Assembly (NCBI GenBank): GCA_963760375.1
Contig: CAVXCS010000003.1
Location: 3,590 to 67,589 of the forward strand
Reading direction: 5' to 3'
From: an uncultured Flavobacteriaceae bacterium
GTDB taxonomy: Bacteria; Bacteroidota; Bacteroidia; Flavobacteriales; Flavobacteriaceae
Length of the DNA stretch: 64,000 bases
The position numbers were made by a program, and so were the translations under genes. The notes below the pieces were generated by a model that saw only the letters and a program-made list of their open reading frames with translations, made no database searches and was not told the DNA's origin. This document shows positions 5,139-34,868 of the stretch, in pieces (positions within the stretch are counted from its first letter, which is position 1; every line of letters starts with the position of its first letter).

Positions 5139-5489
5139 ATGGCTTTTGAAGAATTAAAAATGGACCTCAAGGAGGCGGATGCCGATTTGAGGTCTTATTT
5201 GGAACATAGTGAAGAGCACCTGAAGCTGAAAGTCTTCAAGGTGTTTATGGTTTCCGTTACCACCGCAGCACAGGCTTTGCTGATCGGTGCGATATCGCTG
5301 TTGGCTCTTTTTATGCTCTCTTTGGCCGTATCATACGCCCTTGGGGAATTATGGAACGACATCTACCTGGGCTTTTTGGCTGTGGGACTATTTTATTTGG
5401 TCCTTGCCATCGTTTGTTATCTATTAAGGGAAAAATTGAATTCGCCCATATTAAAAAAGTTTTCTAAATATTATTTCGACGCCCTATGA
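5139..5489 (+). CDS. small two-TM membrane protein (phage-holin-family/Holin-X-like)
   Basis: 116 aa with a charged N-terminus and two hydrophobic helices. It sits 6 nt after the YtxH gene. Confidence 0.55.
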   Translation: MAFEELKMDLKEADADLRSYLEHSEEHLKLKVFKVFMVSVTTAAQALLIGAISLLALFMLSLAVSYALGELWNDIYLGFLAVGLFYLVLAIVCYLLREKLNSPILKKFSKYYFDAL

Positions 5490-5749
5490 ACTACCACTAC
5501 AGCTCTTTCAAGGAAATCGATGAACGCCTTAGGATATTGGCCCTGCAACGGGAAATCAGCAAGGAGAGCCTAAAGCTGAACCTTTATTCTGCCAAAAGGG
5601 ATATATTTCCTTCCCATATTATCAGCGGATTGAGCGGTTCGCTCCAAAAATTGGTGCTCACTTGGGTGCTTAAAACAATGGTGGCCAAGTTTCGCAAGCC
5701 CAAGGAAAAAGAAGTTTCCGAACAAACCAAGGTCGATCAACTGAACTGA
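5486..5749 (+). CDS. hypothetical protein
   Basis: 87-aa ORF overlapping the previous stop by 4 nt (ATGA coupling). No family recognised. Confidence 0.45.
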   Translation: MNYHYSSFKEIDERLRILALQREISKESLKLNLYSAKRDIFPSHIISGLSGSLQKLVLTWVLKTMVAKFRKPKEKEVSEQTKVDQLN

Positions 5750-6807
5750 GCCACTTTTTTTAGGGCCTCTTTGTCTTTCAATATGATTTTTCTTCCCTGA
5801 TCGGTGGTGATCAATCCTTCATCCTTGAAATCGGACAAGGTGCGGATCGCGGTTTCGGTCGCGGTTCCGATCATCCCGGCAAAATCTTCCCTTGGGATCC
5901 CGACTCCATTATTCGCCCTATCCTGAACAATCCCTTTCTCGAACAACTGTAATAGTGCCTTGGCGGCCCTTTGCCGCACCGAAGCATATGCCATATCCAC
6001 CAGGTGCTCTTGAACATCGATCAAATTGGCCGACATCATGGTGATGAACTTCTGCGAAATCACTTGGTTGCTGAAAAGTAGGTTGGTGAATTCCTCTTTT
6101 GGAATGGCATACAGGTTGGCATCCTCAACCACTTTTGCCGTTTCAATATACCTTCCGTCGCTGTTGAGCAATGACAGTTGCCCTACGAAGTCGCCCGCAC
6201 TGTAGATGCCCGTAACGAATTCCTTCCCTGATTCAGTGCCCACATAGGTCTTTACCGTACCACTTTCGATGAGATAGAGGGCATGGGCACCATCCCCTTC
6301 CCAAAAAACGAATTCGTTTTTTTCATATTTTTTCAGATCGTGCGATTTGGAAAGACTTTCCAAATCGATATGATTAGAGGCCCCTTCGAGGAAGTTATTG
6401 ATGCCGGAAAGGTTTTTGGCTATTTCTGTTTTCAGGAAATCGCGCTTTTGAAGGCGGCTCTGTATGGCATCCAACAATTCCTGTTCTTCAAAGGGTTTGG
6501 TTAAATAATCATCTGCGCCGAGGTTCATCCCCTCACGGACATCGGCCCTACTGGTCTTTGCGGTTAAAAAAATAAACGGGACGCCCGCAGTACCGCCATT
6601 TTGGTTCAATTGGCGCAACACCGAATAACCATCCATTTCCGGCATCATGATATCACAGATCACAATGTCGGGCAAAAATTCAAACGCCATGGCGATACCG
6701 ATTTTGCCGTTTTCCGCCGTGGCCACTTCGTAATTGGCCAATCTTAGGATTTCTGCCGTATTTTCCCGCACATCCATGTTGTCTTCAATAAGCAGTACTT
6801 TTTGCAT
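5737..6807 (-). CDS. response regulator: REC + cNMP-binding + Crp/Fnr-type HTH (RR-Crp1)
   Basis: REC motifs (LLIEDN...DIVICDIMMPEMDG...LTAKT...GADDYLTKPF), a cNMP-binding beta-roll (FWEGDGAHALYLIESGTVK) and a C-terminal HTH (GTATETAIRTLSDFKDEGLI, about 5833-5895). Confidence 0.9.
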   Translation of the reverse strand: MQKVLLIEDNMDVRENTAEILRLANYEVATAENGKIGIAMAFEFLPDIVICDIMMPEMDGYSVLRQLNQNGGTAGVPFIFLTAKTSRADVREGMNLGADDYLTKPFEEQELLDAIQSRLQKRDFLKTEIAKNLSGINNFLEGASNHIDLESLSKSHDLKKYEKNEFVFWEGDGAHALYLIESGTVKTYVGTESGKEFVTGIYSAGDFVGQLSLLNSDGRYIETAKVVEDANLYAIPKEEFTNLLFSNQVISQKFITMMSANLIDVQEHLVDMAYASVRQRAAKALLQLFEKGIVQDRANNGVGIPREDFAGMIGTATETAIRTLSDFKDEGLITTDQGRKIILKDKEALKKVAQFS

Positions 6808-9343
6808 CTTCTTTTAAATTTAATGGAATTTCAATGGTAAAGGTGCTTCCCTTACCCACCTCACTTTCAAAATCGATGGTACCGCCCACCAGGTCGATGT
6901 ATTGCTTCACGATATGCAGGCCCAGTCCCGTACCTTGAATATTGGCCGCATTGGCGGCCCTAAAAAACCGATCGAACAGGTTTTTCTGCTCTGCTACCGG
7001 AATACCGATTCCCCGATCGATCACTTCGATTTTGGCACGGCCCCGTTCGCTCGACACCAGACAGGTGATTTCTTGATCCTCGTTCGAATATTTTATGGCA
7101 TTCGACAATAAGTTGTTGATCATATGGCCCAGCATCTTTTTATCGGAACAAGTGATGATTGGATCTGCGGACGTTTTCAAGACCAATTGCTGACCCTCTT
7201 TTTTGTTGATTTCCATCTCTTCCATCAAGGATTTGATATAAGAGGAAATATCAAAATATTCCGGTTTGGGCTTCACCTTGCCTTCTTCCAACTTGCTCAA
7301 GGAAAGGAAATCATTGAGAATGACCACCAAATTTTTGACGTTCGCTTTGATCCTGTCAACATGTTTCTCCCTTCTCTCCTCCTTACCAGGTTCATTTTGT
7401 TTGCCGATAAGAATGGCGGAGGAAAGGATGGCACTCAATGGGGTACGGAATTCATGGGAGGCCATCGATATGAAGCGCGATTTTAATTCGTTGAGTTCCC
7501 TTTCGCTGATCAGTGCCTTGAGCAATTCATCCTGTACCATTTTTTGATCGGTGATATTGCTATATACAAACAGGCCCCATACTATTTTGTCATCGGAATA
7601 GAGGGGAGTTGAATTGATCGAATAGACGTTTTCGTTGTATGTGATCTCATCGGTGGCATGTTCGCCGCTTAGGGTTTGAAGCACCAGGGCTTGGATTCTT
7701 TCGATTTGGGCCGTGGAAAATTCCGGGATATCCTCTAGGCGTTTTCCCTCCAAATCGCTCTTTTTTAGATGCAACCGCTCCAATTCTTCCCCTTCAACAT
7801 ACACAATTTCAAGATTTTGATTGAAGACGACAATGATACCTTTTGGAAAATTTTGGGCGATTGCCGAAATCAATGTTTGGCTCCTTAGCGCTTTGTCCTC
7901 AGCGATTTGGGTTTCCTTGATTTGATCTTCCAAATTAAGATTGCTCTCCTTCAATTGCTGCACCGTCGCATTCAGTTCCCCGGTACGTGCCCGTACTTGG
8001 TCTTCCAGGTTTTGGGTATATTTTTCCAATTTCCTTTGACTGGCCTCCAATTCGATTCCGATTTGATTTTGGTGGATGGCCAAAGCCGCCAGTTGTGAAA
8101 GATCGGCCATGATTTCCCTATCGGTTTTAAGCGGAATTTTAGGGGATTCACAATACACCGAAAAGGTACCCAGCACCTCTTGATTCTTTGAAATAATGGG
8201 TATTGACCAGCAAGATTTCAAGTTGTTTTCAAGGGCAGTTTCATGATAGGCCTTCCAATAGGGATCTTTTGCAAAATCGGGCACGAACACCTCTCTTTTG
8301 GTGTAGGCCGATACACCGCAGGAACACCCTTCGGGACCCACTGGCATTCCCTCCAAGGCTTTTTGCAAGGCCTTGGGCAAACTTGGGGCCGCCAATTGGT
8401 GCAAGGTGCCCTTTTTGTGGTCAAGAACCGTAATGCTCGCCATACAGCCCTGAAAATGCGCTTCTGCAGCCCTGACAATATAATTTGCAATGACTTTGAG
8501 GGGTTGGTCCATCGCGATTTTCTCCAAGATCCTTCGGATATCATCTTTAAGTTGCAGGGCCTTTTTCTCCTTGGTCACATCATGCTGTACGCCGATAAAA
8601 TGGGTCAGGTTTTGTTCTTGGTCATATACCGGGGTAATGGTGAGTTCGTTCCAGAACAGGGTGCCATCTTTGCGGTAATTTCGAAGTACCACCTTACAGT
8701 CGTTCCCTTTTTTGATGGCTTTTCGCAGTCTTTTCAAAGCGGGTTGATTTCGATCTCCGTTTTGTAAAAAGCGGCAGTTACGACCCAAAACTTCACTGTT
8801 TCGGTATCCCGTCATGCGGCTAAAGGCCGGGTTGCTATAGATAACGGGCATTTCGGGATCAAGCGCATCCGCTATCAAAATACCGTTGCCGGCAGCGTTC
8901 AGGGCCCTGTTGCGAACATCAAGGGAATTTTGTACCGATAGTGTATGGGCCACCGATTTGGCCATGGTCGATATTCCTTTGAAGGTATCATGGGTGCGGT
9001 TCACAAAGGCAAGCGCTATAGGTTGCTCTTTTTGGCGCAACGACACCAACTTGAGCTTCAAGTTCATAGGGTTGTCTTCTTTGTCATGGCCCACGAATTC
9101 AAGGCTGGCATCACCGTTGAGCTGTCGCAATTGGTCCAAGAGCGCCTTGCGATCGGCTTTTGCGATGTGGTCCACCAATTTTCGACCCGCCATTTGATTG
9201 GAGGCGTACCCGAATAAGTTCAAAAAGGAGGGATTGGCCATAACGATCTTGCTGTTCAAATCAAGAAGGCCGACCGCTTCCGAACCGTAGTCGAAGACGT
9301 GCTTAAAAATAACCGAATCTGTAATTTGTGCCATCATGTTCAA
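6785..9343 (-). CDS. PAS-LOV-GAF-PAS sensor histidine kinase (HK1)
   Basis: 852-aa ORF. The track start at 9343 is TTG; the first ATG is at 9337. It has a LOV signature GRNCRFLQ, a GAF-like middle region, HisKA (SHEFRTPL) and HATPase (GTGLGL...GKGSTF) motifs. It overlaps the RR gene by 23 nt. Confidence 0.9.
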   Translation of the reverse strand: MNMMAQITDSVIFKHVFDYGSEAVGLLDLNSKIVMANPSFLNLFGYASNQMAGRKLVDHIAKADRKALLDQLRQLNGDASLEFVGHDKEDNPMNLKLKLVSLRQKEQPIALAFVNRTHDTFKGISTMAKSVAHTLSVQNSLDVRNRALNAAGNGILIADALDPEMPVIYSNPAFSRMTGYRNSEVLGRNCRFLQNGDRNQPALKRLRKAIKKGNDCKVVLRNYRKDGTLFWNELTITPVYDQEQNLTHFIGVQHDVTKEKKALQLKDDIRRILEKIAMDQPLKVIANYIVRAAEAHFQGCMASITVLDHKKGTLHQLAAPSLPKALQKALEGMPVGPEGCSCGVSAYTKREVFVPDFAKDPYWKAYHETALENNLKSCWSIPIISKNQEVLGTFSVYCESPKIPLKTDREIMADLSQLAALAIHQNQIGIELEASQRKLEKYTQNLEDQVRARTGELNATVQQLKESNLNLEDQIKETQIAEDKALRSQTLISAIAQNFPKGIIVVFNQNLEIVYVEGEELERLHLKKSDLEGKRLEDIPEFSTAQIERIQALVLQTLSGEHATDEITYNENVYSINSTPLYSDDKIVWGLFVYSNITDQKMVQDELLKALISERELNELKSRFISMASHEFRTPLSAILSSAILIGKQNEPGKEERREKHVDRIKANVKNLVVILNDFLSLSKLEEGKVKPKPEYFDISSYIKSLMEEMEINKKEGQQLVLKTSADPIITCSDKKMLGHMINNLLSNAIKYSNEDQEITCLVSSERGRAKIEVIDRGIGIPVAEQKNLFDRFFRAANAANIQGTGLGLHIVKQYIDLVGGTIDFESEVGKGSTFTIEIPLNLKEDAKSTAY
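8573..8908 (-). other. LOV (flavin, blue-light) domain inside HK1
   Basis: GILIADA...PVIYSNPAFSRMTGY...GRNCRFLQ...RNYRKDGTLFWNELTITPV...FIGVQHDVT. The adduct-forming Cys codon is at 8774-8776. Confidence 0.85.
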
Positions 9344-9466
9344 AAAGGCGGCGAAAACCGATTGTTTTTTGCATTTTTGCCATTATCGGGTTTCCATTTA
9401 CCTGTGAACCGGAAAAATAGCTTGGTAACAGGCGTTGGATTTCCAAAATGGTAATTCCCCGCAGTT

Positions 9467-9509
9467 CAAATGTATCATAGCTATCTCCGTATTAAAATGA
9501 TATTGGTCA
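9467..9509 (-). promoter_or_regulatory. motif-B operator plus -7 box (promoter of HK1/RR-Crp1 operon)
   Basis: AATGATATTGGTCAGC with core at 9498-9509. On the minus strand a perfect TACATTTG lies at 9474-9467, starting 29.5 bp from the centre. The operator is flanked by two copies of the palindrome ATAGCTAT (9477-9484, 9512-9519). Confidence 0.7.
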
Positions 9510-9591
9510 GCATAGCTATAAAGCTTTGGGCCGAATAATCGGGTCTGTGATGCGCGGTCGTATTTTATATCACAATTAAAATGAATCAACC

Positions 9592-10350
9592 ATGAACACA
9601 GGATTGGTGCTTTCAGGGGGCGGGGTGCGCGGCATGGCCCATATTGGAGCCATTAAAGCCCTTGAAGAACACGGTGTCAAGCCCAATTATATAGCCGGCA
9701 CCAGCGCAGGCGCCATCGTGGGCGCCTTATATGCCGGTGGTTATGGTTGGGAAACCATCTTCGATTTTTTTAAATCGATCGACCTGTTTTCCATCAATAA
9801 ATATGCGTTGAACAAGCCGGGCTTTGTCGATACCGAAAAATTCTATGATCGTTTTACCCCTTTCTTTCCCCAGGATGATTTCGATACCCTAAAAATGCCG
9901 CTTTACATCACGGCCACCGACATATTGAAGGGCACCCTTAAAGTGTTCCATCAAGGCGAACTTATTCGTCCCATTTTGGCTTCCGCCGCTTTTCCGGGCA
10001 TGTTTACCCCGGTCGAGATCAATGGGGCCTATTATGTGGATGGCGGTACCCTCAATAATTTTCCTGTAGACCTGATCAAAGGTTTTTGCGAACATATCGT
10101 CGGGGTTTATGTGAACCCGTTTGATAAAGTGGAAATCGGCGATTTGAAGCATTCCTACAATATTTTGGAACGCGCTTATAAGATTAGGTCCACCCGCGAT
10201 TCAGAATCCAAATTTATCGATTGCGATATGTTGATTTGCCCACAGGACCTGAGCAATTATAGTACCTTTTCGACAAAAAATATGGATACCATCTTCAAGT
10301 TGGGGTATAAAGCTGCCAAAGAGGCATTGGAGGACGCTGATGGTTTTTAA
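9592..10350 (+). CDS. patatin-like phospholipase
   Basis: GGGVRG oxyanion motif, GTSAG nucleophile motif and DGG catalytic Asp motif. Confidence 0.85.
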   Translation: MNTGLVLSGGGVRGMAHIGAIKALEEHGVKPNYIAGTSAGAIVGALYAGGYGWETIFDFFKSIDLFSINKYALNKPGFVDTEKFYDRFTPFFPQDDFDTLKMPLYITATDILKGTLKVFHQGELIRPILASAAFPGMFTPVEINGAYYVDGGTLNNFPVDLIKGFCEHIVGVYVNPFDKVEIGDLKHSYNILERAYKIRSTRDSESKFIDCDMLICPQDLSNYSTFSTKNMDTIFKLGYKAAKEALEDADGF

Positions 10351-10517: not shown

Positions 10518-13166
10518 TTAGGATTTAGGGAAAAAGTTGCCGATCCGTTTGATGGACTGGGCCATGAGCAGCGAACCAAGTGCAAACAGCGCGATATACG
10601 AATATTGACTTAAGGTAAGGTGGGTCAAGGCGAGGGCTTCGGCAACAACGGGAATTACCGACACCGCAAAGGTCAAAAATGCACATAGCACAATAGCGGC
10701 CCAAACCCAAGGGTTGGCCGTGACCTCATTTTTGAAGAATGACCCCCCGCTTTTTGGAATATTGAAAAGATTGAGCAATTGGGCGAGTATTAAAGTGAAG
10801 AATGCCATATTATTGATCAAACCCGGTTCGAGCTTTAGGGTAAAGTAGCCGAAGGCGGTGATACCAAGTACGGCAGTGCTGATCGATAACCCATAGATCA
10901 ATATTGCATACCAATGCGCTGGTGTTAAAATGGGCTCATCGGGTTTTCTTGGAGGGGTTTGCATCAGTGTGGGATCGCCTTTACCAAGGCCCAAAGCAAG
11001 GGCGGGAAAAATATCGGTGATCAGGTTCAGGAACAAAATCTGTAATGGCAGCAAAGGGGAGGGGAGGTTGATCAAGGCGGCGATTCCCACGGAAACAATT
11101 TCGGCCAGATTGCTCGAAAGCAGGTATACCACAAACTGCCGAATGTTATGATAGATGACCCTGCCTTGTTGAATGGCCAACTCGATGGCCGTAAATTTAT
11201 CGTTCTTCAGGATCATATCGGCGGCCTCACGAGCCGCCTCGGTACCACGGATGCCCATGGCGATGCCAATATCGGCCTTTCGCAAAGCGGGAACATCGTT
11301 GATGCCGTCACCTATCATGGCCACCACATTGTTATTGGCTTGAAAGAATTGTATCAACTTCAATTTTTGTTCCGGGACCACCCTTGCAAAAACCACCGTA
11401 TTCATCAGGGCCGAGGTCATCTTGGTATCCAACGCAGCTTTGATCGGCAGTTCATTGCCATGCCTAACAAATCGATGGGCGTCATCTTTGGTCAAAAGGC
11501 CAATTTCCTGTGCTATTTTTATGGCGGTGCCCATATGGTCCCCAGTCATCATAACGACCCGTATCCCGGCTTTTTTGTAGACTTCGATTGTATGTTTTAC
11601 ATCTTGCCTGGCCGGGTCGATAAAGCCTATGACCCCCAAAAAGGTAAGGTCGTTCAAGATTGCATCCCTTTCCGGCTCCTCTTTGGAGACCCTGGAGGCG
11701 AATGCAATGGTACGCAATCCTTGGGAGGCCAGAGCATCCACCTTTGTCAACCAAGCTTCTTTTGAATTGAAGGCTTGGGCGGTATCCTTTTCGAGTATGG
11801 TATCACAGCATGCCACAATGCCCTCAAAGGCCCCTTTTACATAGGTATGGTAGGCATTTTGGCCCCGGTTCACGGTGGCCATCAATTTGCGATCGGTATT
11901 GAAGGGGAGCTGTTTTAATTCCACATTGTTTTTTTGGGCTTCTTTTGGGTCATAGCCGAGGTTGCTCGCAAAATCGATCAAGGCCTGATCTATGGTATCC
12001 CTGTGCGCATGTTCGTCGGCCAGGGCAACATCGTTGCAAAGCATACAGGCCATGATGATTTCTTGGTACGCACGGTTATCGACGGGCATTTCGGCCATGG
12101 ACTTGGTGTTGAGCCCGGTAATCGAACGCCCATCGTACAATAGGGTGTGTACCCTTAGCAGGTCTTCTGTTAAGGTACCCGTTTTATCGGTACAGATGAT
12201 GTTTGTAGCACCAAGGGTCTCTACCGCTTTGAGGTTCTTGATGATGAGCTGTTTTTTTGACAAGCGTACCATCCCCCTGGCCAGGGCGATCGTGGCAACG
12301 ATCGGTAGGCCCTCGGGTATCGTTGCAACGGCAAGGGCCAAAGCGGTCTCCAACATCAAAAAGAATGCTTTACCCTGAACATATCCGGTAATCATGATAA
12401 GTACGGCCAAAACCAGGGTCAACACGATCAACTTTTTGCTGAGCTTGTTGAGCTTCTTTTCGAGGGGGGTGCGCTCTTCGGTGGCCTCCATGGCCATTTG
12501 ATGGATTTTTCCCAGTTGTGTTCCCTTGCCGGTGGCGGTGACGATGGCTTTCCCGGTGCCACCGGTGACAACGGTACCCCTAAAAACCATGTTGGTTTGC
12601 CCGGTCAAAGGCGTTTTTTGCGATACTGCTGCGGTCCTTTTTTCGATGTCGACGCTTTCCCCGGTTAGGGCAGATTCCCTGACCAAAAGATTTTCTTGTG
12701 ACAGCAGACGGGCATCGGCCGTAACGATATTGCCCACATCGAGAAGAACGATATCTCCGGGCACCAACAAGGAATCGCGAATGCTGCAAATTTCCCCGGA
12801 TCTGATCACGCGGGCCATTGTCTGGCCCAGTTGACGTAACGATTCCAGGGAACGCACCGCCTGTAATTCCATAAAGTAACCGATGGCCACCGTGATCAAG
12901 ATCACAATGGCAATGGCCGATCCTTCGGCCCAATCCTCGAACAGGAAGGCCAAAACCGCGGCGGCACCTAAGATGTAAATAATGGGATCTGTGAACTGTT
13001 CGACAAGAAGGCGGCTCCTCTTTTTTGGCCTTGTTTCGGGCAGCTGATTATTGCCAAGTTGTGCGAGACGATTGGAGGCCTCTTCTTGGGTCAAGCCATA
13101 TTCCCCATCACTTTTTAAGTGTTGAACAACATCCAATATGGTCAGGGAGAATGGGTATTTGATCAT
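10518..13166 (-). CDS. cation-translocating P-type ATPase (type II, Ca/Mg-like)
   Basis: ICTDKTGTLT, MMTGDH and GDGINDVPAL motifs. The track ORF starts at a TTG at 13220; I prefer the ATG at 13166 (MIKYPFSLTILDVV...). Confidence 0.9.
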   Translation of the reverse strand: MIKYPFSLTILDVVQHLKSDGEYGLTQEEASNRLAQLGNNQLPETRPKKRSRLLVEQFTDPIIYILGAAAVLAFLFEDWAEGSAIAIVILITVAIGYFMELQAVRSLESLRQLGQTMARVIRSGEICSIRDSLLVPGDIVLLDVGNIVTADARLLSQENLLVRESALTGESVDIEKRTAAVSQKTPLTGQTNMVFRGTVVTGGTGKAIVTATGKGTQLGKIHQMAMEATEERTPLEKKLNKLSKKLIVLTLVLAVLIMITGYVQGKAFFLMLETALALAVATIPEGLPIVATIALARGMVRLSKKQLIIKNLKAVETLGATNIICTDKTGTLTEDLLRVHTLLYDGRSITGLNTKSMAEMPVDNRAYQEIIMACMLCNDVALADEHAHRDTIDQALIDFASNLGYDPKEAQKNNVELKQLPFNTDRKLMATVNRGQNAYHTYVKGAFEGIVACCDTILEKDTAQAFNSKEAWLTKVDALASQGLRTIAFASRVSKEEPERDAILNDLTFLGVIGFIDPARQDVKHTIEVYKKAGIRVVMMTGDHMGTAIKIAQEIGLLTKDDAHRFVRHGNELPIKAALDTKMTSALMNTVVFARVVPEQKLKLIQFFQANNNVVAMIGDGINDVPALRKADIGIAMGIRGTEAAREAADMILKNDKFTAIELAIQQGRVIYHNIRQFVVYLLSSNLAEIVSVGIAALINLPSPLLPLQILFLNLITDIFPALALGLGKGDPTLMQTPPRKPDEPILTPAHWYAILIYGLSISTAVLGITAFGYFTLKLEPGLINNMAFFTLILAQLLNLFNIPKSGGSFFKNEVTANPWVWAAIVLCAFLTFAVSVIPVVAEALALTHLTLSQYSYIALFALGSLLMAQSIKRIGNFFPKS

Positions 13167-13341
13167 TTTTTGGTCGCGATCGATAAGTTTTCCTTGGAAA
13201 GCCCTTTTAAATTTAGCCAAAATAACAATGCCCTCCTATCTTTCCCAAAGTAACATGGACGCTTTTTTTGGAATCGACAAAAGGGCATTTTAAAAATCTA
13301 TGGCAGCCCATTCGTGATGCTTGCCACAGTATTTCACGTCA

Positions 13342-13806
13342 TTATGAGATTTCAATCTTTTTGGACGGTTTTTTCTTGGCTTCTTCTTTTTTGGCCAGGT
13401 TAAAGCACAGAATGCCATCCTTGTAGGAGGCCTTGATGGCTTCTTCCTTTACGTTCTCAGGCAACTGCAACGACCTTTCAAAAGCATTGTAACTGAATTC
13501 CTGACGGGTATAGTCTTTTTCTTTCTCTTCTTTGGAGGTCGATTTTTCGGCCGAGATGTTCAAACAGCCATCGTCGATGGTCACATTGAAATCTTTTTTG
13601 GAGAAACCGGGTGCGGCCAGTTCAATTTCGAATTTTTCGTCGGTCTCTTTGATGTTCAGGGCTGGTTCTGAGGTTTTGCCGTTCCAAAAACGATCGGGCG
13701 GCATATTTCTGACCCAGTTGCGATTGTCGAAGAAATCATCGATATCAAAAAAGTCTTGAGGTACGAGATTTCCAAAAGGCCTTCTTCTAACTTTTACTAG
13801 TGACAT
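13342..13806 (-). CDS. Hsp20/alpha-crystallin small heat-shock protein
   Basis: 154 aa with an alpha-crystallin domain (FEIELAAPGFSKKDFNVTIDDGCLNISAEK...SYKDGIL). Confidence 0.9.
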   Translation of the reverse strand: MSLVKVRRRPFGNLVPQDFFDIDDFFDNRNWVRNMPPDRFWNGKTSEPALNIKETDEKFEIELAAPGFSKKDFNVTIDDGCLNISAEKSTSKEEKEKDYTRQEFSYNAFERSLQLPENVKEEAIKASYKDGILCFNLAKKEEAKKKPSKKIEIS

Positions 13807-13841: not shown

Positions 13842-13884
13842 CTAAAGTACGTACAGCGCCACCTCGGCAAAATGACCTAGGTCA
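13842..13884 (-). promoter_or_regulatory. motif-B operator plus -7 box (promoter of hsp20 / P-type ATPase)
   Basis: AATGACCTAGGTCAGG with core at 13873-13884. On the minus strand TTTG follows directly, and TACTTTAG lies at 13849-13842, 29.5 bp from the centre. Confidence 0.65.
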
Positions 13885-26346: not shown

Positions 26347-27378
26347 ATGGAAGCGTTACGGTCACTTATAAGAAAGCTTTTTTGGTTGTTCCTGACCGTG
26401 TTTTTGTTGATTGCCACGGTGTTTATTGGCTTGTTTCGCTTTCCGGAGGGGTCATCTCCGATTCCGGCACCCCAACCCGATGTCGTTCTCAAGGAATGGC
26501 AGCCAAAAAATGTACTGGAAGCATTGAGTACCATGGATTCCGAAGTGAAACTGGGTTATCTGTTGATCAAGGAAACGCCGGGTCAAATGGGCCCGTCCGC
26601 CGATAATCCCGAAATGCGTTTTAGCGGGAATCACCTGGCCTGTGCCAATTGTCATTTGAAGGAGGGTACGCAGGCAGGGTCCGCCTCATGGGTGGGCGTC
26701 ATCGACCGGTTCCCCCAATTCGGAGGGCGTTCCAACAAGATAGGGACCATCGAGGATCGGATCAATGGATGCATGGAGCGCAGTATGAACGGAAAAAAAC
26801 TTCCGCCCGATTCTGAACCCATGAAAGCGATCGTGGCTTACATGGAATGGCTCGGGGTAGGATTGCCGGCAGACAGACGAAATGAATACATGGGTTATGC
26901 CGAAATGGAAATACCAGAAAGGGCAGTCGACCTCCCGAAGGGAGAAGCCCTGTACATGAAGGAATGCATGGTCTGTCATGGGGAGAGCGGTCAAGGGATT
27001 CGTTTGGCGGATGCCTCGGAAGGATACCTATATCCGCCCTTATGGGGCCCGGATAGTTACAACAATGGGGCAGGCATGCACCGGGTGATCACGGCAGCCG
27101 AATTCATCAAAGGGAATATGCCCTTTGGCCAAGCCACATGGGACAATCCCAAATTGACCGATGAGGAAGCCTTCGATGTGGCGGGATATATCAATAGCTT
27201 TGATCGCCCTGTAAAGGCAGGCACGGAAAATGATTATCCCGATAAAAAATTAAAACCGGTATCGACACCTTATGGCCCTTGGGCCGATGATTTTTCGGCC
27301 GAACAGCATAAATTCGGTCCTTTTCAGCCGATTATGGAATTCTACAAAAGGCAATACGATATAACCAAGACCAAATGA
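26347..27378 (+). CDS. dihaem c-type cytochrome, TsdA-like (thiosulfate dehydrogenase-like)
   Basis: Two CxxCH motifs (CANCH, first Cys codon at 26641, and CMVCH). A conserved Cys sits 39 residues after the first haem His, in IEDRINGCMERSMNG, as in TsdA/SoxA-type Cys-ligated haems. Confidence 0.65.
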   Translation: MEALRSLIRKLFWLFLTVFLLIATVFIGLFRFPEGSSPIPAPQPDVVLKEWQPKNVLEALSTMDSEVKLGYLLIKETPGQMGPSADNPEMRFSGNHLACANCHLKEGTQAGSASWVGVIDRFPQFGGRSNKIGTIEDRINGCMERSMNGKKLPPDSEPMKAIVAYMEWLGVGLPADRRNEYMGYAEMEIPERAVDLPKGEALYMKECMVCHGESGQGIRLADASEGYLYPPLWGPDSYNNGAGMHRVITAAEFIKGNMPFGQATWDNPKLTDEEAFDVAGYINSFDRPVKAGTENDYPDKKLKPVSTPYGPWADDFSAEQHKFGPFQPIMEFYKRQYDITKTK

Positions 27379-28724
27379 AACCAACCCTTGCCCTTGCTTC
27401 CCTGTTATGCCTGATGTCGAATTTCGCCCTGTCCCAGGATAAGGTCGAAACAAAAGATAAAGGGAAGCTGTCCGGACAATGGAGAACCTATTTCATGGGG
27501 ACAGTCAACAACGGAAATTTAAAGGATTTTTATGCGCTGGCTTCCGGTGGCAAGATCAAGTATCAATATTCGTTCAATGACAAATTGGAACTGGGGGCAG
27601 CGGTTTACAATGCCACCAACCTGGGTCTACAAGATCTTACGCTGGCCGATCCAACAACCGGTAGGTTGAGCCGTTATGAAGAAGGTCTGTTCAATAGGCT
27701 CGACCTTGCCAACGATGCGGTATTCTTATTGGGGGAGCTATATGCAAAAGTCAAAATACCGAAACATGAATTCACCTTGGGTCGAATGAAAGTAAACTCC
27801 CCTTTGCTGAACCCCCAGGACGGAAGGATGATACCCACTCTTGTACAAGGTCTCTGGTACGGCTATCGACCCAACACCTCCAATGTCTTGCAATTTGGGG
27901 TGTTTAACCAAATAGCCCCCCGATCGACCGGTGGATTTTACGGCATAGGGGAAAGTATCGGCACTTACCCTGTGGGGAGGAACCCGGCGGGCCAAACAAG
28001 TGGCTATGCGGGGAACACCGATTCCGATTATTTGGTCTTGTTCAATACGGAATTGAAGGTCACGGAAACCGTTCGACTCGATTTTTGGAACTTGTATGCA
28101 GACAATGTTTCGAACAGCACCTATTTGAGGCCCAAAATGCAGTTGAACCAAAAATGGAACCTGGAAATGGAATGGTTGCACCAAAACAAAGTGGGCAATG
28201 GGGGCAATGCCGTTGATTCATTGCGCTATTTTACGAGCAAATCTTCAGACATTTTGGGCATTAGGATGAATTATCGATCGAATAGATCGGAAATCTCCCT
28301 GGCCTATAACAGGATTTTCGCCCATGGGCAATTTCTTTCGCCCCGGGAATGGGGAAGGGAAGACCTGTTCAGTTTTCAGAAAAGGGAACGCAGCGAGGGG
28401 TCTGGAGACAACCATGCCTTGGTCTTATACTATGACGATCACTTTGGCCTTGGCAAAGGCAAGGACCAAATTCAAGGTATTTTCAGTGTTGGCAAACATT
28501 GGAAGCCCTCTGTTTTAGATCCCCGATTGAACAAATATGCCATTCCGGACTATACCCATATCAACATTGACCTGTTTTTTAAGTTTGAAAAGCTAAAGAA
28601 CCTTCAACCCGAACTGTTGTTGGTGACGAAGATCGCCAATGGCGACTTCCCCGATAATCCGAATTATTACTTCAACAAGACCGATATGTTCCATATCGAT
28701 ATCATTTTGAATTACAATTTTTAG
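27375..28724 (+). CDS. outer-membrane porin (OprD-like)
   Basis: Signal peptide, GRMKVNSPLLNPQDGRMIPTLVQG segment, and a beta-barrel pattern ending in ...ILNYNF. It overlaps the cytochrome gene stop by 4 nt. Confidence 0.6.
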   Translation: MKPTLALASLLCLMSNFALSQDKVETKDKGKLSGQWRTYFMGTVNNGNLKDFYALASGGKIKYQYSFNDKLELGAAVYNATNLGLQDLTLADPTTGRLSRYEEGLFNRLDLANDAVFLLGELYAKVKIPKHEFTLGRMKVNSPLLNPQDGRMIPTLVQGLWYGYRPNTSNVLQFGVFNQIAPRSTGGFYGIGESIGTYPVGRNPAGQTSGYAGNTDSDYLVLFNTELKVTETVRLDFWNLYADNVSNSTYLRPKMQLNQKWNLEMEWLHQNKVGNGGNAVDSLRYFTSKSSDILGIRMNYRSNRSEISLAYNRIFAHGQFLSPREWGREDLFSFQKRERSEGSGDNHALVLYYDDHFGLGKGKDQIQGIFSVGKHWKPSVLDPRLNKYAIPDYTHINIDLFFKFEKLKNLQPELLLVTKIANGDFPDNPNYYFNKTDMFHIDIILNYNF

Positions 28725-28746
28725 CATTGCAAAAAGGTTCAAAAAA

Positions 28747-28773
28747 AAGATGGAACCTGTATGGTTCCATCTT
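28747..28773. terminator. bidirectional intrinsic terminator between convergent porin and sqr genes
   Basis: An 11-bp stem, AAGATGGAACC / GGTTCCATCTT, with a 5-nt loop. It is flanked by an A-run (28741-28748) and T residues. Confidence 0.75.
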
Positions 28774-28800
28774 TCGCATGATAAGGGGGAAAGAAGGGGA

Positions 28801-30063
28801 TTAAACGTCCTGACCTTTCATCATTTTATTCCAGTACAGATAGGGGAGTATATATTTTTTAAGGATCCAAAGCCTCCAATGCTCCTTGGCGCTGTCAAAG
28901 ACCAGCATCTGCTTTAATTTGGGGTCGGGCGTAAAATTGTTTTGATAGTCGAATTCCCCGAGGACCATTTTGCCATAACCGGTGACCAGGGGGCAAGACG
29001 AATACCCGTTGTAAGATTTATTGCTGGCTTCTTGGTGATCCATCAGTTTCATGAGGTTGTCTACCACTACCGGCACTTGCTTTCTGATCGCCGCCCCCGT
29101 TTTGGCCGTGGGCAGTGCCGCAACATCGCCCAACCCAAAAATATTGGTGAAATGGTTGTGCTGCATCGAATGGTGGTCAACATCGAGCCATCCGGCATCA
29201 TTCACCAAAACCGATTCTTTCACAAACTTGGGCGCTGTTTGGGGAGGCGCTAGGTGCAACATGTCGAAAGGGATCTCGATTACGGCCTCCCCGGTCATTT
29301 TTTCTCCCAAGGGATTGTTCTCGGCGATCACACTTTGATTTTCACCCGTTGCCGTGTTTTTGAAGTAGATTATCTTCTTCTCCGCGTCTATTTTAAAGGG
29401 GGCATAAAAGGGTTTGAAATGGATGTCGTAACGTTCGAGGACCTTTGTCAGGGTGGTCTTTATTTCCTTCACGCCGAAAATGACCGATCCCGGGGTGGCA
29501 AAGATGACATTGGTTTTCTTGGCCAGCCCATGTTTTCTGAAATAATCGGCCGCCAAATAGGCAGTTTTCTGAGGCGCGCCCCCACACTTGATGGGTGTGG
29601 TGGGTTGGGTAAATACGGCGTTGCCGCCCTTGAAATTTTTGATGACCTCCCAGGTATGTTTGGGGTCGGTATAATTACTGCATACCACGCCCTTGCCGAT
29701 GGCTTCCGTTAGGCCTTCGATGAGCGAAGTATCCATCACCAGACCTGGGGCGACCACCAAATAATCATAGGTGATCGTGCCGGTTGACTTGGTGGTTACC
29801 GCATTTTTTTTGGGGTCGAAGCCGGTGGCATAGTCCTTGATCCAATTGACCCCTTTGGGCATCACCGAGGCCATGGGCCTGGCGGTTTTATCGTAGTCAT
29901 AAGTGCCTGCGCCCACCAGGGTCCAAGCAGGTTGATAGTAGTGCGTATCGGCCGGCTCAATGATGGCGATGTCCAAACTTTTATTGCGCTTCAGGAGTTG
30001 CGCGGCCGTCATGATGCCCGCGGTTCCCCCGCCTATAATGAGAATTTGATGATGTGCTTTCAT
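28801..30063 (-). CDS. sqr: sulfide:quinone oxidoreductase, type II (SQRDL-like)
   Basis: FAD motif IIGGGTAG. Conserved cysteines lie in PIKCGGAPQK and YSSCPLVTG. 420 aa. Confidence 0.85.
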   Translation of the reverse strand: MKAHHQILIIGGGTAGIMTAAQLLKRNKSLDIAIIEPADTHYYQPAWTLVGAGTYDYDKTARPMASVMPKGVNWIKDYATGFDPKKNAVTTKSTGTITYDYLVVAPGLVMDTSLIEGLTEAIGKGVVCSNYTDPKHTWEVIKNFKGGNAVFTQPTTPIKCGGAPQKTAYLAADYFRKHGLAKKTNVIFATPGSVIFGVKEIKTTLTKVLERYDIHFKPFYAPFKIDAEKKIIYFKNTATGENQSVIAENNPLGEKMTGEAVIEIPFDMLHLAPPQTAPKFVKESVLVNDAGWLDVDHHSMQHNHFTNIFGLGDVAALPTAKTGAAIRKQVPVVVDNLMKLMDHQEASNKSYNGYSSCPLVTGYGKMVLGEFDYQNNFTPDPKLKQMLVFDSAKEHWRLWILKKYILPYLYWNKMMKGQDV

Positions 30064-30106
30064 GGGTTCTTTTGTTATTGTTTGTCGATTGTTTTCTTAA
30101 TGTTTT

Positions 30107-30150
30107 TAAAGTTAAGGAAGCCTTCCTTGATTTTCAGTAACTTAGGTTAC
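30107..30150 (-). promoter_or_regulatory. motif-A operator plus -7 box (promoter of sqr)
   Basis: AGTAACTTAGGTTACA with core at 30137-30150. Minus-strand TAACTTTA at 30114-30107 starts 29.5 bp from the centre. Confidence 0.65.
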
Positions 30151-30182
30151 ACAGCCCATAGTATTTTAAAAAATAGGTGGGG

Positions 30183-30893
30183 TCAGGATTCTAAAAGAAG
30201 CTTTCCGCTTTGGTCTGAGAGGATAAAGTCAGCGGCCATTTTGGCGTGTAATCGGGTAGTGGCCAGTAGGGGCAGGGCTCCCTCTTCGGGCCCTATCAGC
30301 AGTGGAAGTTCCGTACAGCCCAAAATAATGCCATCGGCACCCTTTTCCTTAAGCGATCGTATCTGTTCCAAAAAGAAGGTTTTGGCCTCGGGGGTAAACT
30401 TTCCTTGGGTCAGTTCGTTGGAAACATATTGATGGCAGGTATCGATATATTCGGCTTCCGGTATAATCGTCTCGATGCCATGGTTTTTTTTGAGCTGGGT
30501 CTGGATAAAACCTTTGGTCATGGTGGGCCTGTTCCCCAAAAGCCCCAGTCTTTTGAGTCCCAAACGGGCGGCCTCGCGCCCTGTTGCGTCAGCGATGTGC
30601 AGGATGGGAATTTTGATTTTGGGTTGCACAAAATCATAGACCATATGTGGGGTATTGGCACAGATAACGATGGCCCGTGCCCCGGCATTTTGCAATATTG
30701 TGGCCACCTCCAGGTAGGTGTCGTTGATTTTCTTTACCTCCTGCGCCCGCATCAATTCAATGTTCAGGCTGAAAAGTATCAGGGGCGGGTTGCCCTGCGG
30801 CCCAATGGTTTCGCCTACCATCTCGTTGATCATTCTATAATAAACGATGGTGGAATGCCACGACGTGCCGCCAATAAGTCCGATTAGCCTCAA
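30183..30893 (-). CDS. aspartate/glutamate racemase family protein
   Basis: IGLIGGTSWHSTIVYY and GADGIILGCTELPLL motifs. The apparent start is TTG. Confidence 0.8.
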   Translation of the reverse strand: MRLIGLIGGTSWHSTIVYYRMINEMVGETIGPQGNPPLILFSLNIELMRAQEVKKINDTYLEVATILQNAGARAIVICANTPHMVYDFVQPKIKIPILHIADATGREAARLGLKRLGLLGNRPTMTKGFIQTQLKKNHGIETIIPEAEYIDTCHQYVSNELTQGKFTPEAKTFFLEQIRSLKEKGADGIILGCTELPLLIGPEEGALPLLATTRLHAKMAADFILSDQSGKLLLES

Positions 30894-30918
30894 ATCCTTT
30901 TCATTTTAGAGGGGCTCA

Positions 30919-31917
30919 TTAAGGGTTGTTTTCATCGAAGACGATGCTCCAAATGCCCCTGACCTGGTTCACATCATACCCTACGGCCAGGTCTTTTGGG
31001 TAAAGTTTCTTCAAGGTGGCCATGGTGGCCGGTGCGATTTGTTCATCAGGGGTTCCATGACATTGCAGGCACATGGCGTTGGTGGTGATGGGGTAATAAA
31101 AATGCACCTCCCCTTCGACGGTATTTACAATAGGTTCGACTTCCCCGCCCGTTGCCAAGGCCTTTTTAAAAGAATCGATGTAGCCCAATTCTTCCGAACT
31201 GGCCTTATTCTTGGGATTTCTTGGTTTATCCGATACCCTTTTGATGACCGCATTGTTCATTATCGACACACTGTCGGTTAGTCCGGTAGCCTCGTTATGG
31301 CAGAAACCAATGGCCCCTACCGTACCTTTTTCCTGAACGGCCTTCATCAAATTTGAGCCCAATTGGCTTTTCGCGGCCGATGCATAATCGAGCCCCATCT
31401 TGGTATACCGGGCCTGGGCCCTTTTTGCGGCCATACCCATGCCCTTGTTTTTTCCTTTTTGCTTCCCGTATTGCTCTTGGTAGCGGCCGTCGTACCAAGT
31501 GGGTTTCTCAATGTCATAATCATAAAGGTACGCGGCAACCTGGGCAAGGGCATCTTCCGGATAGGGCATATAGGGCATGGTGCCAAATTGTTTATGGGCA
31601 CCGGGCATTTTGGTTTCTTGTTCAGGATCGTTCATCCATCGGATGAGGTCTTCCGTAAACGTTTCCTTGGTGGTATTCGAATCGATATAATGACGTTTGA
31701 TGGCCACCATGGGCGGTGCGATCATCGCCTCTTGGGAGGCTTTGGGATTATGGCATTGATAACATTCCGTTTCCAAGACCCTTTTGCCGGGATGCGTATC
31801 TTTATCCTGTACCGTTTCTTGCCAGGCATCGGATACGATGGGTACCGGATCCGATTTCGTGTTTTCCCTACAATTGACGAGGACCAAAAAAACAAGCAGC
31901 GATGCGATACGTTTCAT
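30919..31917 (-). CDS. c-type cytochrome / DUF3365-like lipoprotein
   Basis: Lipobox LVLVNC. Haem motifs CYQCH and CLQCH. Start moved to the ATG at 31917. Confidence 0.65.
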   Translation of the reverse strand: MKRIASLLVFLVLVNCRENTKSDPVPIVSDAWQETVQDKDTHPGKRVLETECYQCHNPKASQEAMIAPPMVAIKRHYIDSNTTKETFTEDLIRWMNDPEQETKMPGAHKQFGTMPYMPYPEDALAQVAAYLYDYDIEKPTWYDGRYQEQYGKQKGKNKGMGMAAKRAQARYTKMGLDYASAAKSQLGSNLMKAVQEKGTVGAIGFCHNEATGLTDSVSIMNNAVIKRVSDKPRNPKNKASSEELGYIDSFKKALATGGEVEPIVNTVEGEVHFYYPITTNAMCLQCHGTPDEQIAPATMATLKKLYPKDLAVGYDVNQVRGIWSIVFDENNP

Positions 31918-32020
31918 AATTTCCAGATTTTGATAGGGTACCATGACCGAGGTATCGACATAGGATTACCCCAGTGTTCTCCAAACCCTTTGAAGTCGGT
32001 TCATCGGCAAAGGTGAAAAA

Positions 32021-32392
32021 TTACATTCGCCCTGCCAAAGCCGATTCGTTGTTCCATCTTTGGTAACCGCCTTTCAGGTCATAAATTTCTGAAAATCCCA
32101 TCGCCAACAATCTCTTTGCTGCATTTTTGCTCCGAGATCCCGATCGGCAATAGAGGTAAACCGGTTTGTTCTTGTTCAATTTCTCAAAGGATTTATTAAA
32201 ATTCGCCCCATCGAAAAAATCGATGTTGAGGGCATTTTTGATATGGCCACTGCGATACTCACGGGCCGTGCGCACATCCACGAGTTGCACTTTTTTCCCG
32301 GAAACCGCGGTAGCATAGGCCATGGGGTCCAATATTTTGATTTTATCCGACGGTGCTTGTTTTGTTCCGAATAAGTTACTGAAAAACGACAT
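32021..32392 (-). CDS. rhodanese-domain sulfurtransferase
   Basis: Active-site loop YCRSGSRS. Start moved to the ATG at 32392 (MSFFSNLFG). Confidence 0.8.
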   Translation of the reverse strand: MSFFSNLFGTKQAPSDKIKILDPMAYATAVSGKKVQLVDVRTAREYRSGHIKNALNIDFFDGANFNKSFEKLNKNKPVYLYCRSGSRSKNAAKRLLAMGFSEIYDLKGGYQRWNNESALAGRM

Positions 32393-32528
32393 ATAATCCT
32401 GTATTGAGGTTCTTTGGCGGTAATGAAAGGGAAACGGCACCTATTACGATAACCGTTTCCCTAAACAACCAACCTAACAAAACCAATTTATTTTACAAAT
32501 TTTTTTGGTGTAAATCCGTGCTTGCGCC

Positions 32529-33944: not shown

Positions 33945-33970
33945 TTTATTATAATTTTTGATTTATAGGT

Positions 33971-34014
33971 TAAATGTAAGGACGGTTAAAAACCTGTACA
34001 GTAACATTGGTTAC
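33971..34014 (-). promoter_or_regulatory. motif-A operator plus -7 box (promoter of PDO-rhodanese operon)
   Basis: AGTAACATTGGTTACA with core at 34001-34014. Minus-strand TACATTTA at 33978-33971 starts 29.5 bp from the centre. Confidence 0.65.
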
Positions 34015-34067
34015 AAAACTCGAAGTTTATCATGGTCAAGCGCATGATGAAGATCAGTTTTTCGAAT

Positions 34068-34868
34068 TTAGAATAGTTCTTTGAACAAAATGTAAATCCC
34101 CATGAGCAACACGAACCATCCAAAAGATTTTTTAAGCCGGTTGCCATCGATAAACTTGTTGAGCCAAACGCCCAAGAATATGCCTACCACCGAGAGGGCC
34201 GTAAATCGAAACAGAAACGCCCAGTCGATGTCGAGGTTTTCCACATCACCTATAAAACCGATCAAAGACTTTATCGCGATGATCAGCAGGGAAGTGGCGA
34301 CCGCTTTTTTCATGGGTAGTTTGGCCAACATCACAAGGGCGGGAATGATCAGGAAACCGCCCCCTGCGCCCACGATACCGGTTATGACCCCAACCACAAA
34401 TCCTTCGAGAACGATCAAGGGAAAATTGTATTCGACCACGGCATTATCGTCATCACAGTTTTTGCACTTGCCCTTGATCATTGAATAGGAGGCCAAGAGC
34501 ATGATCAGGGCAAAGAACACCATGATGCCGATATCCTTGGTCACCAAAAACCCGCCTACCGTAAACAGTTCGTCGGGTATGGCGGGCACCATGTATTTTC
34601 TGGTGGCATACACGGCGATAAATGCGGGAATGGCAAAGACGATGGCCGTCTTAAAGTCGACCAATCCCTTTCTGATATTTTGAATCGCCCCGACCAGCGA
34701 GGAGACCCCCACTACGAACAGGGAATAGGCCGTGGCCACGACAGGGTTGAGGTATAATAGGTAAACAAAAACGGGAACCGTAAGAATAGATCCTCCACCA
34801 CCGATCAAGCCCAATACTACCCCAATCAGCAAGGCCCCGACATAGCCCAAAATTTCCAAGAATTCCAT
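34068..34868 (-). CDS. TauE/SafE-family sulfite/anion exporter
   Basis: 266-aa polytopic protein with duplicated GGGGS/GAGGGF motifs (LIGGGGSILTVP, IVGAGGGFLIIP). Confidence 0.85.
   Translation of the reverse strand: MEFLEILGYVGALLIGVVLGLIGGGGSILTVPVFVYLLYLNPVVATAYSLFVVGVSSLVGAIQNIRKGLVDFKTAIVFAIPAFIAVYATRKYMVPAIPDELFTVGGFLVTKDIGIMVFFALIMLLASYSMIKGKCKNCDDDNAVVEYNFPLIVLEGFVVGVITGIVGAGGGFLIIPALVMLAKLPMKKAVATSLLIIAIKSLIGFIGDVENLDIDWAFLFRFTALSVVGIFLGVWLNKFIDGNRLKKSFGWFVLLMGIYILFKELF

Follow-up and report, generated by a model that had tools for sequence, protein, structure and literature searches.

A LOV histidine kinase paired with a receiver-FixK fusion regulator in a Flavobacteriaceae bacterium: a candidate blue-light input to a low-oxygen-type regulon

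Does a member of the Flavobacteriaceae couple blue light to a stress regulon and, if so, to which kind? The question is raised by HK1, a histidine kinase encoded together with its partner regulator RR1 on a 64,000-nucleotide stretch of DNA (the window) from an uncultured Flavobacteriaceae bacterium (assembly GCA_963760375.1, contig CAVXCS010000003.1, positions 3,590 to 67,589). A first-pass annotation of the window had placed a canonical LOV blue-light domain in HK1, followed by GAF and PAS modules. It had further proposed that the HK1-RR1 operon, behind a promoter of its own termed motif B, provides light-dependent, positively autoregulated entry into a stress programme in what it took to be a non-phototroph. 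On the evidence set out below we think it probable, on balance, that HK1 and RR1 deliver a blue-light LOV input to a FixK-type low-oxygen/dormancy regulon. Rather than triggering a generic stress response, light would then most likely be a second input to an oxygen-responsive circuit.

The minus-strand translation of 8573..8908 reads RALNAAGNGILIADALDPEMPVIYSNPAFSRMTGYRNSEVLGRNCRFLQNGDRNQPALKRLRKAIKKGNDCKVVLRNYRKDGTLFWNELTITPVYDQEQNLTHFIGVQHDVT. It contains every peptide on which the LOV call had been based, namely RALNAAGNGILIADALDPEMPVIYSNPAFSRMTGYRNSEVLGRNCRFLQ, RNYRKDGTLFWNELTITPV and FIGVQHDVT together with GRNCRFLQ, whose cysteine codon TGC lies at 8776..8774. The pattern N[CA]RF[LI]Q occurs once in the six-frame translation of the window, and that single occurrence is this motif. 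Pfam assigns the region to PAS_9 (1.3e-36; residues 153-258 of the 852-residue translation), and a phmmer search against PDB returned 157 matches at E <= 0.001, the top-ranked of which were all LOV proteins. The best of these were the short LOV proteins 7r5n (1.6e-40) and 7yx0, followed by PpSB1-LOV, phototropin LOV domains, aureochromes, YtvA, EL346 and ZTL-type proteins. Two NCBIfam models also match over the LOV region, YtvA_fam (1.8e-45) and a blue-light-activated histidine kinase model (4.5e-41), both scoring below their whole-protein cut-offs because the architecture differs. In a pairwise alignment with YtvA, whose sequence was checked against PDB 2mwg, all seven adduct and flavin residues (C62, R63, Q66, R79, N94, N104 and Q123) are kept in HK1 as C188, R189, Q192, R205, N220, N230 and Q251; here and below, residue numbers are those of the 850-residue public copy of HK1, P0001. 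Moreover, the adduct cysteine is kept in 100 of 120 homologues and in every close relative of HK1, such as the 90%-identical P0002 (GRNCRILQ), and N169, N220, N230, Q192 and Q251 are near-invariant. An AlphaFold2 model of HK1 (22 homologues as input; mean predicted local distance difference test, pLDDT, of 77) gives pLDDT values of 84-92 over the LOV core (150-255), with an A'alpha helix at 129-149 and a J-alpha-like helix at 255-275. A match of this kind is far beyond chance, and residues 144-255 are a canonical LOV domain, as safely as sequence analysis permits. Binding of flavin mononucleotide (FMN) and a blue-light photocycle are predicted for it.

HK1 is encoded by a minus-strand open reading frame at 6785..9343, with a translation of 852 residues; the public copy is 100% identical and starts at the ATG at 9337. 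Pfam and the AlphaFold2 model agree on the module order PAS, LOV, GAF, coiled coil, PAS, HisKA and HATPase_c (Table 1), so that the GAF and PAS modules said to follow the LOV domain are indeed there, and neither indicates a membrane segment. The ATPase domain holds the N, G1, F and G2 boxes (NAIKY, DRGIGI, FDRFFR and GTGLGL). Public annotation describes the family merely as 'PAS domain S-box protein'. Within the GAF domain, Cys340 is nearly invariant in homologues (GCSCG in HK1, GSCG in the family consensus). A GAF of the free-methionine-sulfoxide-reductase or haem type, suspected from this cysteine, is unsupported, since phmmer found no sequence relative of the domain in PDB at E <= 0.01.

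The linkers between these modules are of nearly invariant length. Among 22 homologues of 42-90% identity, the spacing from LOV Q251 to GAF L312 is 62 residues in 21, and that from GAF A420 to PAS N496 is 77 residues in 21, the one exception being shorter by exactly 7, which is one heptad of the coiled coil. From PAS K599 to the phospho-acceptor His628 the spacing is 30 residues in all 22. Fixed linker spacings are as expected for a signal moving along a continuous helical spine. When the full-length model was submitted to a fold search, the matches were generic multi-domain sensor kinases, phytochromes and DosP, at low template-modelling (TM) scores because the inter-domain geometry differs; they bring no evidence over and above that from sequence.

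We next turn to the output of the kinase. The start of RR1 overlaps the stop of HK1 by 23 nt, and Pfam recognises in RR1 a receiver (Response_reg, 3.4e-29), a cNMP-like domain (PF00027, 8.6e-21) and a Crp-type helix-turn-helix (PF13545, 4.9e-15). The receiver carries E8/D9, D52 (in ICDIMMP), T82 and K104. Over residues 148-354, RR1 scores 1e-20 to 1e-22 against the NCBIfam FixK, FNR and CRP models, short of the equivalog cut-off in each case. A gene of the same receiver (REC)-cNMP-Crp architecture also directly follows the kinase in relatives of 90% and 62% identity, in which synteny extends to the Hsp20, P-type ATPase, patatin and YtxH/DUF6327 genes. A genome scan seeded on the HisKA motif, not on LOV, sampled the kinase family without bias and yielded 80 loci, spread over Flavobacteriia, Cytophagia, Chitinophagia, Saprospiria and Sphingobacteriia; the source genome was not among them, and two loci from contig look-ups (L081 and L082) were added. 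In 70 of these 82 Bacteroidota loci, and in 10 of the 10 that encode a LOV kinase, the gene directly after the kinase is a full-length REC-cNMP-Crp gene. HK1 and RR1 therefore form an operon whose adjacency is conserved, and phosphotransfer from HK1 to RR1 is the predicted outcome.

A second, paralogous two-component pair, HK2-RR2, is encoded in the same window at 54201..56869 (+). In PDB, the N-terminal PAS of HK2 is most similar to haem domains, those of FixL (1d06, 1.4e-15; 1dp6) and of DosP, with the proximal His aligned. RR2 (350 residues; REC, cNMP-like and Crp helix-turn-helix) is 45% identical to RR1, and the recognition helices are near-identical (TATETAIRTLS in RR1, IATETLIRTLS in RR2); the regulators of the scanned loci are all closer to RR1 than to RR2. 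Judging from these similarities, RR1 and RR2 probably read the same half-site, and HK2 is probably an oxygen sensor feeding the same boxes as HK1-RR1.

The wider kinase family puts the LOV domain in perspective. Most of its members are without LOV and start with a PAS homologous to the haem-type PAS of HK2, the proximal His column being His in 65 of the 72 N-terminal PAS domains. LOV within the family is limited to a Flavobacteriaceae clade. The LOV domain is thus a lineage-specific input added to a phylum-wide FixL-like kinase/receiver-FixK system. As far as sequence can tell, HK1-RR1 is the Flavobacteriaceae version of this Bacteroidota-wide system, in which the kinases usually sense through a FixL-like haem PAS. 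Some longer Flavobacteriaceae kinases (P0007, P0019, P0020, P0027, P0055, P0061 and P0072; loci L003, L006 and L082) have both a FixL-like haem-type PAS with its His kept and the LOV-GAF-PAS block, and these are candidate single-protein sensors of oxygen and light. The haem-type PAS is absent from HK1 and its close relatives P0002-P0005. A haem PAS was accepted for HK2 and the longer relatives and rejected for HK1 itself, whose N-terminal PAS-A has no cofactor-specific similarity, its PDB matches being weak and generic to PAS domains (best E = 0.008).

Upstream of the operon, motif B proved to be real: the interval 9467..9509 given for it exactly delimits a 43-nt composite of a palindrome (TGACCAATATCA), a 23-nt spacer and a -7 box. 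The latter, TACATTTG, fits TAnnTTTG, the -7 consensus of Bacteroidetes sigma-A. The window has 14 copies of the 16-mer TGACCWATATCATTTT when up to 3 mismatches are allowed, against 2.1 expected, a count that none of 100 shuffles attained. The strict pattern TGA-N6-TCA-N22-24-TAnnTTTG occurs nine times, always with N23, as compared with 0.04 in shuffles; these sites lie at 1324(+), 9509(-), 24299(-), 36710(+), 51095(+), 54177(-), 56908(+), 57855(+) and 60986(-). Allowing one mismatch raises the count to 23 against 1.0 expected (4719, 13884, 47519, 48683, 62543 and others), nearly all of them intergenic and aimed at a gene, and the HK1-operon promoter shares its design with about 20 other promoters of the window.

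The composite recurs in related loci, where 49 strict sites were found in 957 kb. Sites are kept at orthologues of the YtxH operon and the 128-residue protein gene in both L081 and L082, and at Hsp20 in L081. Of the 9 LOV-kinase loci, 8 have a coding-strand site upstream that departs from the pattern by one mismatch or none; in L082 it precedes an MscS gene inserted ahead of the kinase, and there the box and -7 element are kept and the spacer has diverged. In the family as a whole, the kinase start has a site no more than 400 nt away in 18 of 76 loci, where about 3 would be expected from the overall density. The HK1-RR1 operon has its own Crp/FNR-type promoter, and this promoter is real and conserved. 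From the recurrence of boxes before kinase operons autoregulation can reasonably be inferred, and RR1 is predicted to bind the boxes and to act as an activator, not a repressor.

Two flavours of box can be told apart, TGAyC...TCATTTT and TGAyA..T.TCATA, and the HK1 box is a hybrid that joins a TGACC side to a TATCA side. The TTTT of the first flavour, which is absent in the second, could also serve as a -33-like element, lying 19 nt from the -7 box. An assignment of the flavours to RR1 or RR2 from their recognition helices was rejected, as the helices are near-identical. A self-complementary octamer followed by G, ATAGCTAT + G, occurs twice on the minus strand at the HK1 promoter (9512..9519 and 9477..9484), at an interval of 35 bp. 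The first copy precedes the palindrome by 2 nt, and the second sits within the spacer beside the -7 box; the spacer copy is kept in L081, the 90% relative, and not in L082. No riboswitch or other RNA was found in the 124-nt leader, with no Rfam match at the gathering threshold anywhere in the window, and scans of 5400..9700 for sigma-70 and terminator consensus sequences gave background levels.

Which genes stand behind these promoters? The boxed set (Table 1) includes Hsp20, tandem-domain Usp genes, PfkB and an ROK kinase, the YtxH operon, DUF6799 and the 128-residue protein with MgtC, and several small proteins are also behind boxes. Interspersed with the boxed genes are those for two P-type cation ATPases, for pta/ackA and for a ribonucleotide reductase, as well as a sulfide-oxidation cluster that has a Crp of its own. 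Given Hsp20, five Usp, PfkB, the P-type ATPases, the haem-PAS paralogue and the type of box, the supposed stress programme resembles a FixK/FNR-style low-oxygen/dormancy regulon.

We propose that the circuit would operate as follows. The LOV domain of HK1 would bind FMN, and blue light would drive formation of a Cys188-flavin adduct. The resulting change would be relayed along a rigid helical spine (J-alpha, GAF, 70-residue coiled coil, PAS and DHp) and alter autophosphorylation at His628, and HK1 would in this way set the phosphorylation of Asp52 in the co-transcribed RR1. Phospho-RR1 would bind TGA-N6-TCA boxes with their centres about 41.5 bp upstream of transcription starts and activate in a class-II-type manner. 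Transcribed from the boxed promoters would be Hsp20, Usp, PfkB and membrane-stress genes, with the HK1-RR1 operon as a probable further target. We assume that light activates HK1, as it does the characterised natural LOV kinases. The separate FixL-like HK2, with RR2, would feed the same regulon.

Several observations pull the other way. The near-identical helices of RR1 and RR2 make the assignment of boxes to a regulator, and hence autoregulation, ambiguous; the box at 9509 is a hybrid, and the stand-alone Crp (34939..35571) is a further candidate binder. With the -7 box placed at about -12 to -5, an assumed position relative to an unmapped start, the palindrome centre would come to lie near -41.5, where class-II CRP/FNR activators bind. 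The sign of the light effect on HK1 is not readable from sequence, and the GAF and two further PAS domains of HK1 could dominate signalling. Loss of the adduct cysteine in about 18 of 120 relatives means that a LOV domain can persist without classical LOV photochemistry. The low-oxygen character of the regulon is suggested by gene-content analogy and by HK2. Lastly, the organism is known only from metagenomic DNA runs of sediment, soil and marine samples, and no RNA run holding the source sequence was found among the sequencing runs. Four alternatives were weighed.

Of these the best placed, although we regard it as rather unlikely, concerns the promoter at 9467..9509. It may be bound by RR2 under the control of HK2, or by the stand-alone Crp, in which case HK1-RR1 would be a downstream target of the oxygen circuit and there would be no self-amplifying loop. 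Three Crp-type regulators are encoded in the window, and both the shared recognition helix and the hybrid box would be in keeping with such an arrangement. However, boxes recur before kinase-regulator operons throughout the phylum (18 of 76 loci against about 3 expected, and 8 of 9 LOV loci), and binding by the cognate regulator is the simplest reading of that recurrence. What stands of the autoregulated pair described in the first-pass annotation is an operon with its own conserved Crp/FNR-box promoter; with near-identical helices, RR1, RR2 or both together could occupy that site, and positive autoregulation is one candidate reading.

A second alternative, which we hold to be unlikely, reverses the sign. 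Blue light would lower the net kinase activity of HK1 or raise its phosphatase activity, light would be a proxy for the oxic surface, and darkness would permit the regulon. The regulon looks low-oxygen-related and the organism comes from sediment, so that an 'exposed and oxic' signal opposing hypoxia would be ecologically sensible. In YF1 (4gcz, among the PDB matches to the HK1 LOV) and other engineered LOV kinases, the sign depends on the register of the linker alone. Against this, the characterised natural LOV kinases, namely Brucella LOV-HK, Caulobacter LovK and Erythrobacter EL346/EL368, are activated by light. YtvA, likewise, turns on the general stress response of Bacillus in blue light (PMC4844311). 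Activation by light is accordingly kept as our working assumption for HK1.

It is more doubtful still that the LOV domain serves mainly as a flavin redox sensor of a reducing cytoplasm under oxygen limitation, with incidental light sensitivity. The system descends from an oxygen-sensing haem-PAS family. Moreover, in about 18 of the 120 relatives (~15%) the cysteine is replaced by G, S or T, often with the following Arg lost too, and the remaining pocket is kept. Most of these relatives belong to a subclade of ~1086-residue proteins; they include P0081, P0093, P0064, P0116, P0083, P0037, P0078, P0097, P0105 and P0068, as well as P0098, P0087, P0117, P0100, P0113, P0096 and others. Such domains may act by cysteine-less photoreduction or as redox sensors. 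Redox control of the LOV flavin has reportedly been seen in Caulobacter LovK. Light-independent roles of bacterial LOV proteins are also documented (PMC4844311). Nevertheless, the cysteine and the full adduct pocket are present in 100 of the 120 relatives and in all close ones, which is hard to explain without selection for photochemistry. That the LOV domain is a structural relic, with the kinase controlled by GAF or the other PAS domains, is very improbable: HK1 does have three other sensor-type domains, but the flavin-contacting residues are very strongly conserved over more than 100 homologues of 42-90% identity and the linker lengths from LOV to His628 are invariant.

How does the proposed blue-light input to a FixK-type regulon compare with known systems? 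Neither LOV histidine kinases nor general stress responses with a light input are new, YtvA, LovK and Brucella LOV-HK being examples (PMC4844311), and a census lists LOV proteins in Bacteroidetes/Chlorobi (PMC4844311, Fig. 5 legend). A further LOV kinase is not surprising in itself, as this is a textbook class with light-stress links known in Bacillus, Brucella and Caulobacter. The closest matches to the LOV core are Pseudomonas short LOV proteins (PpSB1-LOV 3sw1, 7r5n and 7yx0) and YtvA, the latter feeding the Bacillus response mentioned above, and these share with HK1 the same FMN and adduct residues and the A'alpha and J-alpha helices. They have no kinase output (they are short LOV proteins or carry a STAS domain), whereas the HK1 LOV is an internal module of an 850-residue kinase.

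The alphaproteobacterial LOV kinases (Brucella LOV-HK, LovK and EL346/EL368) are like HK1 in having a cytoplasmic LOV N-terminal to the kinase and in linking blue light with a stress regulon. Brucella LOV-HK has a PAS between LOV and kinase, and 6ph4 is among the structural matches of the full-length HK1 model; EL346 (4r38/4r3a) is a sequence match to the HK1 LOV. Their cores are of the HWE/HisKA_2 type, whereas that of HK1 is a classical HisKA (PF00512) with no Pfam match to HisKA_2 or HWE_HK. HK1 further differs in the GAF and 70-residue coiled coil between LOV and kinase, and in belonging to the phylum Bacteroidota. Where those kinases signal to a single-domain regulator or to the PhyR of the sigma-EcfG response, HK1 has a REC-FixK-type DNA-binding regulator as its partner. 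HK1 works like the alphaproteobacterial LOV kinases, outside their lineage.

On the output side the resemblance is to the FixL-FixJ-FixK system of rhizobia and Burkholderia. HK2 has a FixL-type haem PAS, the output domains of RR1 and RR2 match FixK and FNR, and TGA-N6-TCA, the box seen in the window, makes up the core of TTGAT-N4-ATCAA, the FixK/Anr box (PMC12973609). In contrast to that system, the receiver and the FixK-like regulator are fused here, collapsing the FixJ-to-fixK step, and the window promoters use a Bacteroidetes -7 element. The haem PAS with proximal His of FixL-type sensor kinases is present in HK2 and the longer LOV relatives, whereas HK1 has LOV in its place. As for gene content, Burkholderia cenocepacia has a low-oxygen-activated locus, Lxa, with a proposed FixK box (PMC12973609). 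The window holds the same kinds of genes as Lxa (PMC12973609) and DosRST: multiple Usp, Hsp20/alpha-crystallin, PfkB and cation P-type ATPases. All three also have a GAF-containing kinase with a box before its own operon. DosR is a NarL-type regulator and differs in this from the REC-FixK fusion of the window, and no light input is known in the Lxa or DosRST systems. The DosR regulon of Mycobacterium tuberculosis has gene content of the same kinds. It seems quite possible, and we offer it tentatively, that the phylum-wide pair of FixL-like kinase and receiver-FixK regulator drives a DosR/Lxa-like hypoxia-dormancy regulon by way of class-II FNR-type boxes, and that Flavobacteriaceae gained LOV (with GAF). 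Light and oxygen would then be integrated in one kinase, in the relatives with both haem PAS and LOV, or, in this window, by two paralogous pairs converging on shared promoters. In the literature searched, which was incomplete, we found no paper on a flavobacterial LOV kinase or on a REC-FixK fusion system of Bacteroidota, the census mentioned above being the sole relevant item.

The wider neighbourhood of the operon holds further genes of these kinds. Five tandem-domain Usp genes lie at 51476..52318 and 56998..60614 (+). Four of these are consecutive and come straight after HK2-RR2, and a box of its own precedes each of several Usp genes. Two P-type cation ATPases (E1-E2, Cation_ATPase_N and _C) are encoded at 10518..13220 (-) and 44476..46980 (-), the first between Hsp20 and the kinase operon and syntenic in relatives. 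A sulfide/thiosulfate-related cluster at 26347..35571 comprises an SoxA/TsdA-type cytochrome c, an OprD-like porin, an SQR-like flavoprotein, a rhodanese, a metallo-beta-lactamase-rhodanese fusion (persulfide-dioxygenase-like) and a TauE exporter. The stand-alone Crp-family regulator adjoins this cluster and has a different recognition helix.

Table 1. Coordinates of the HK1-RR1 operon, its promoter and related features in the window. Residue numbers refer to the 850-residue HK1.
Feature	Position	Strand	Basis or remark
HK1, soluble multi-sensor histidine kinase, 850 aa	6785..9337	(-)	open reading frame list and database copy
PAS-A, residues 8-114	8996..9316	(-)	secondary structure in AlphaFold2 model
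LOV, residues 144-255	8573..8908	(-)	Pfam, PDB phmmer, YtvA alignment, NCBIfam
Cys188 codon TGC, predicted flavin-C4a adduct cysteine	8774..8776	(-)	aligned with YtvA C62
J-alpha-like helix joining LOV to GAF, residues 255-275	8513..8575	(-)	AlphaFold2 model
GAF, residues 280-424	8066..8500	(-)	Pfam GAF_2 1.2e-15 (Pfam span 281-424)
Coiled-coil segment between GAF and PAS-C, residues 425-484	7886..8065	(-)	model helix 404-475
PAS-C, residues 485-594	7556..7885	(-)	Pfam PAS_4 in three stretches; fold from model
HisKA/DHp, residues 596-684	7286..7552	(-)	Pfam HisKA (PF00512) 2.1e-13
Phospho-acceptor His628 codon, in SHEFRTPL	7454..7456	(-)	H628 invariant in homologues
HATPase_c catalytic domain, residues 693-838	6824..7261	(-)	Pfam 1.3e-28
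RR1, 356 aa: REC (D52), cNMP-like/FNR-type sensor-dimerisation domain, Crp-type helix-turn-helix	5737..6807	(-)	Pfam
Composite promoter, 43 nt: palindrome TGACCAATATCA 9498..9509, 23-nt spacer, -7 box TACATTTG 9467..9474	9467..9509	(-)	motif scan
HK2, 507 aa	54201..55724	(+)	N-terminal FixL-type haem PAS
Hsp20	13342..13806		boxed; promoter 13842..13884
Tandem-Usp genes	51476, 56998, 58042, then 58835 and 59772		behind boxes
PfkB	36775		boxed
ROK kinase	61045		boxed
YtxH operon	4803		boxed
DUF6799	23547		boxed
128-aa protein, then MgtC	1406, 1877		boxed

In summary, the novelty is threefold: in the wiring, a LOV kinase is partnered with a receiver-FixK fusion regulator; the putative target promoters make up a dense FNR-box regulon whose genes are of the kinds known from low-oxygen/dormancy loci; and LOV has been grafted onto a phylum-wide system that otherwise senses oxygen through haem PAS. 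To our knowledge no general stress response pathway has been described for Bacteroidota, none having been found in the literature searched, and the system, if our reading is true, would be a first handle on a stress/dormancy regulator in this phylum. It is present in cultured organisms, namely Winogradskyella thalassocola DSM 15363, Flagellimonas meridianipacifica DSM 25027, Saonia flava and Maribacter spp. Moreover, the invariant LOV-GAF-coiled-coil-PAS-kinase spine may be of use to optogenetic engineers. For the biology of the family, HK1-RR1 and HK2-RR2 would provide a concrete circuit by which non-photosynthetic marine and sediment Flavobacteriaceae integrate light and oxygen, and possibly one that decides on dormancy at the sediment surface.

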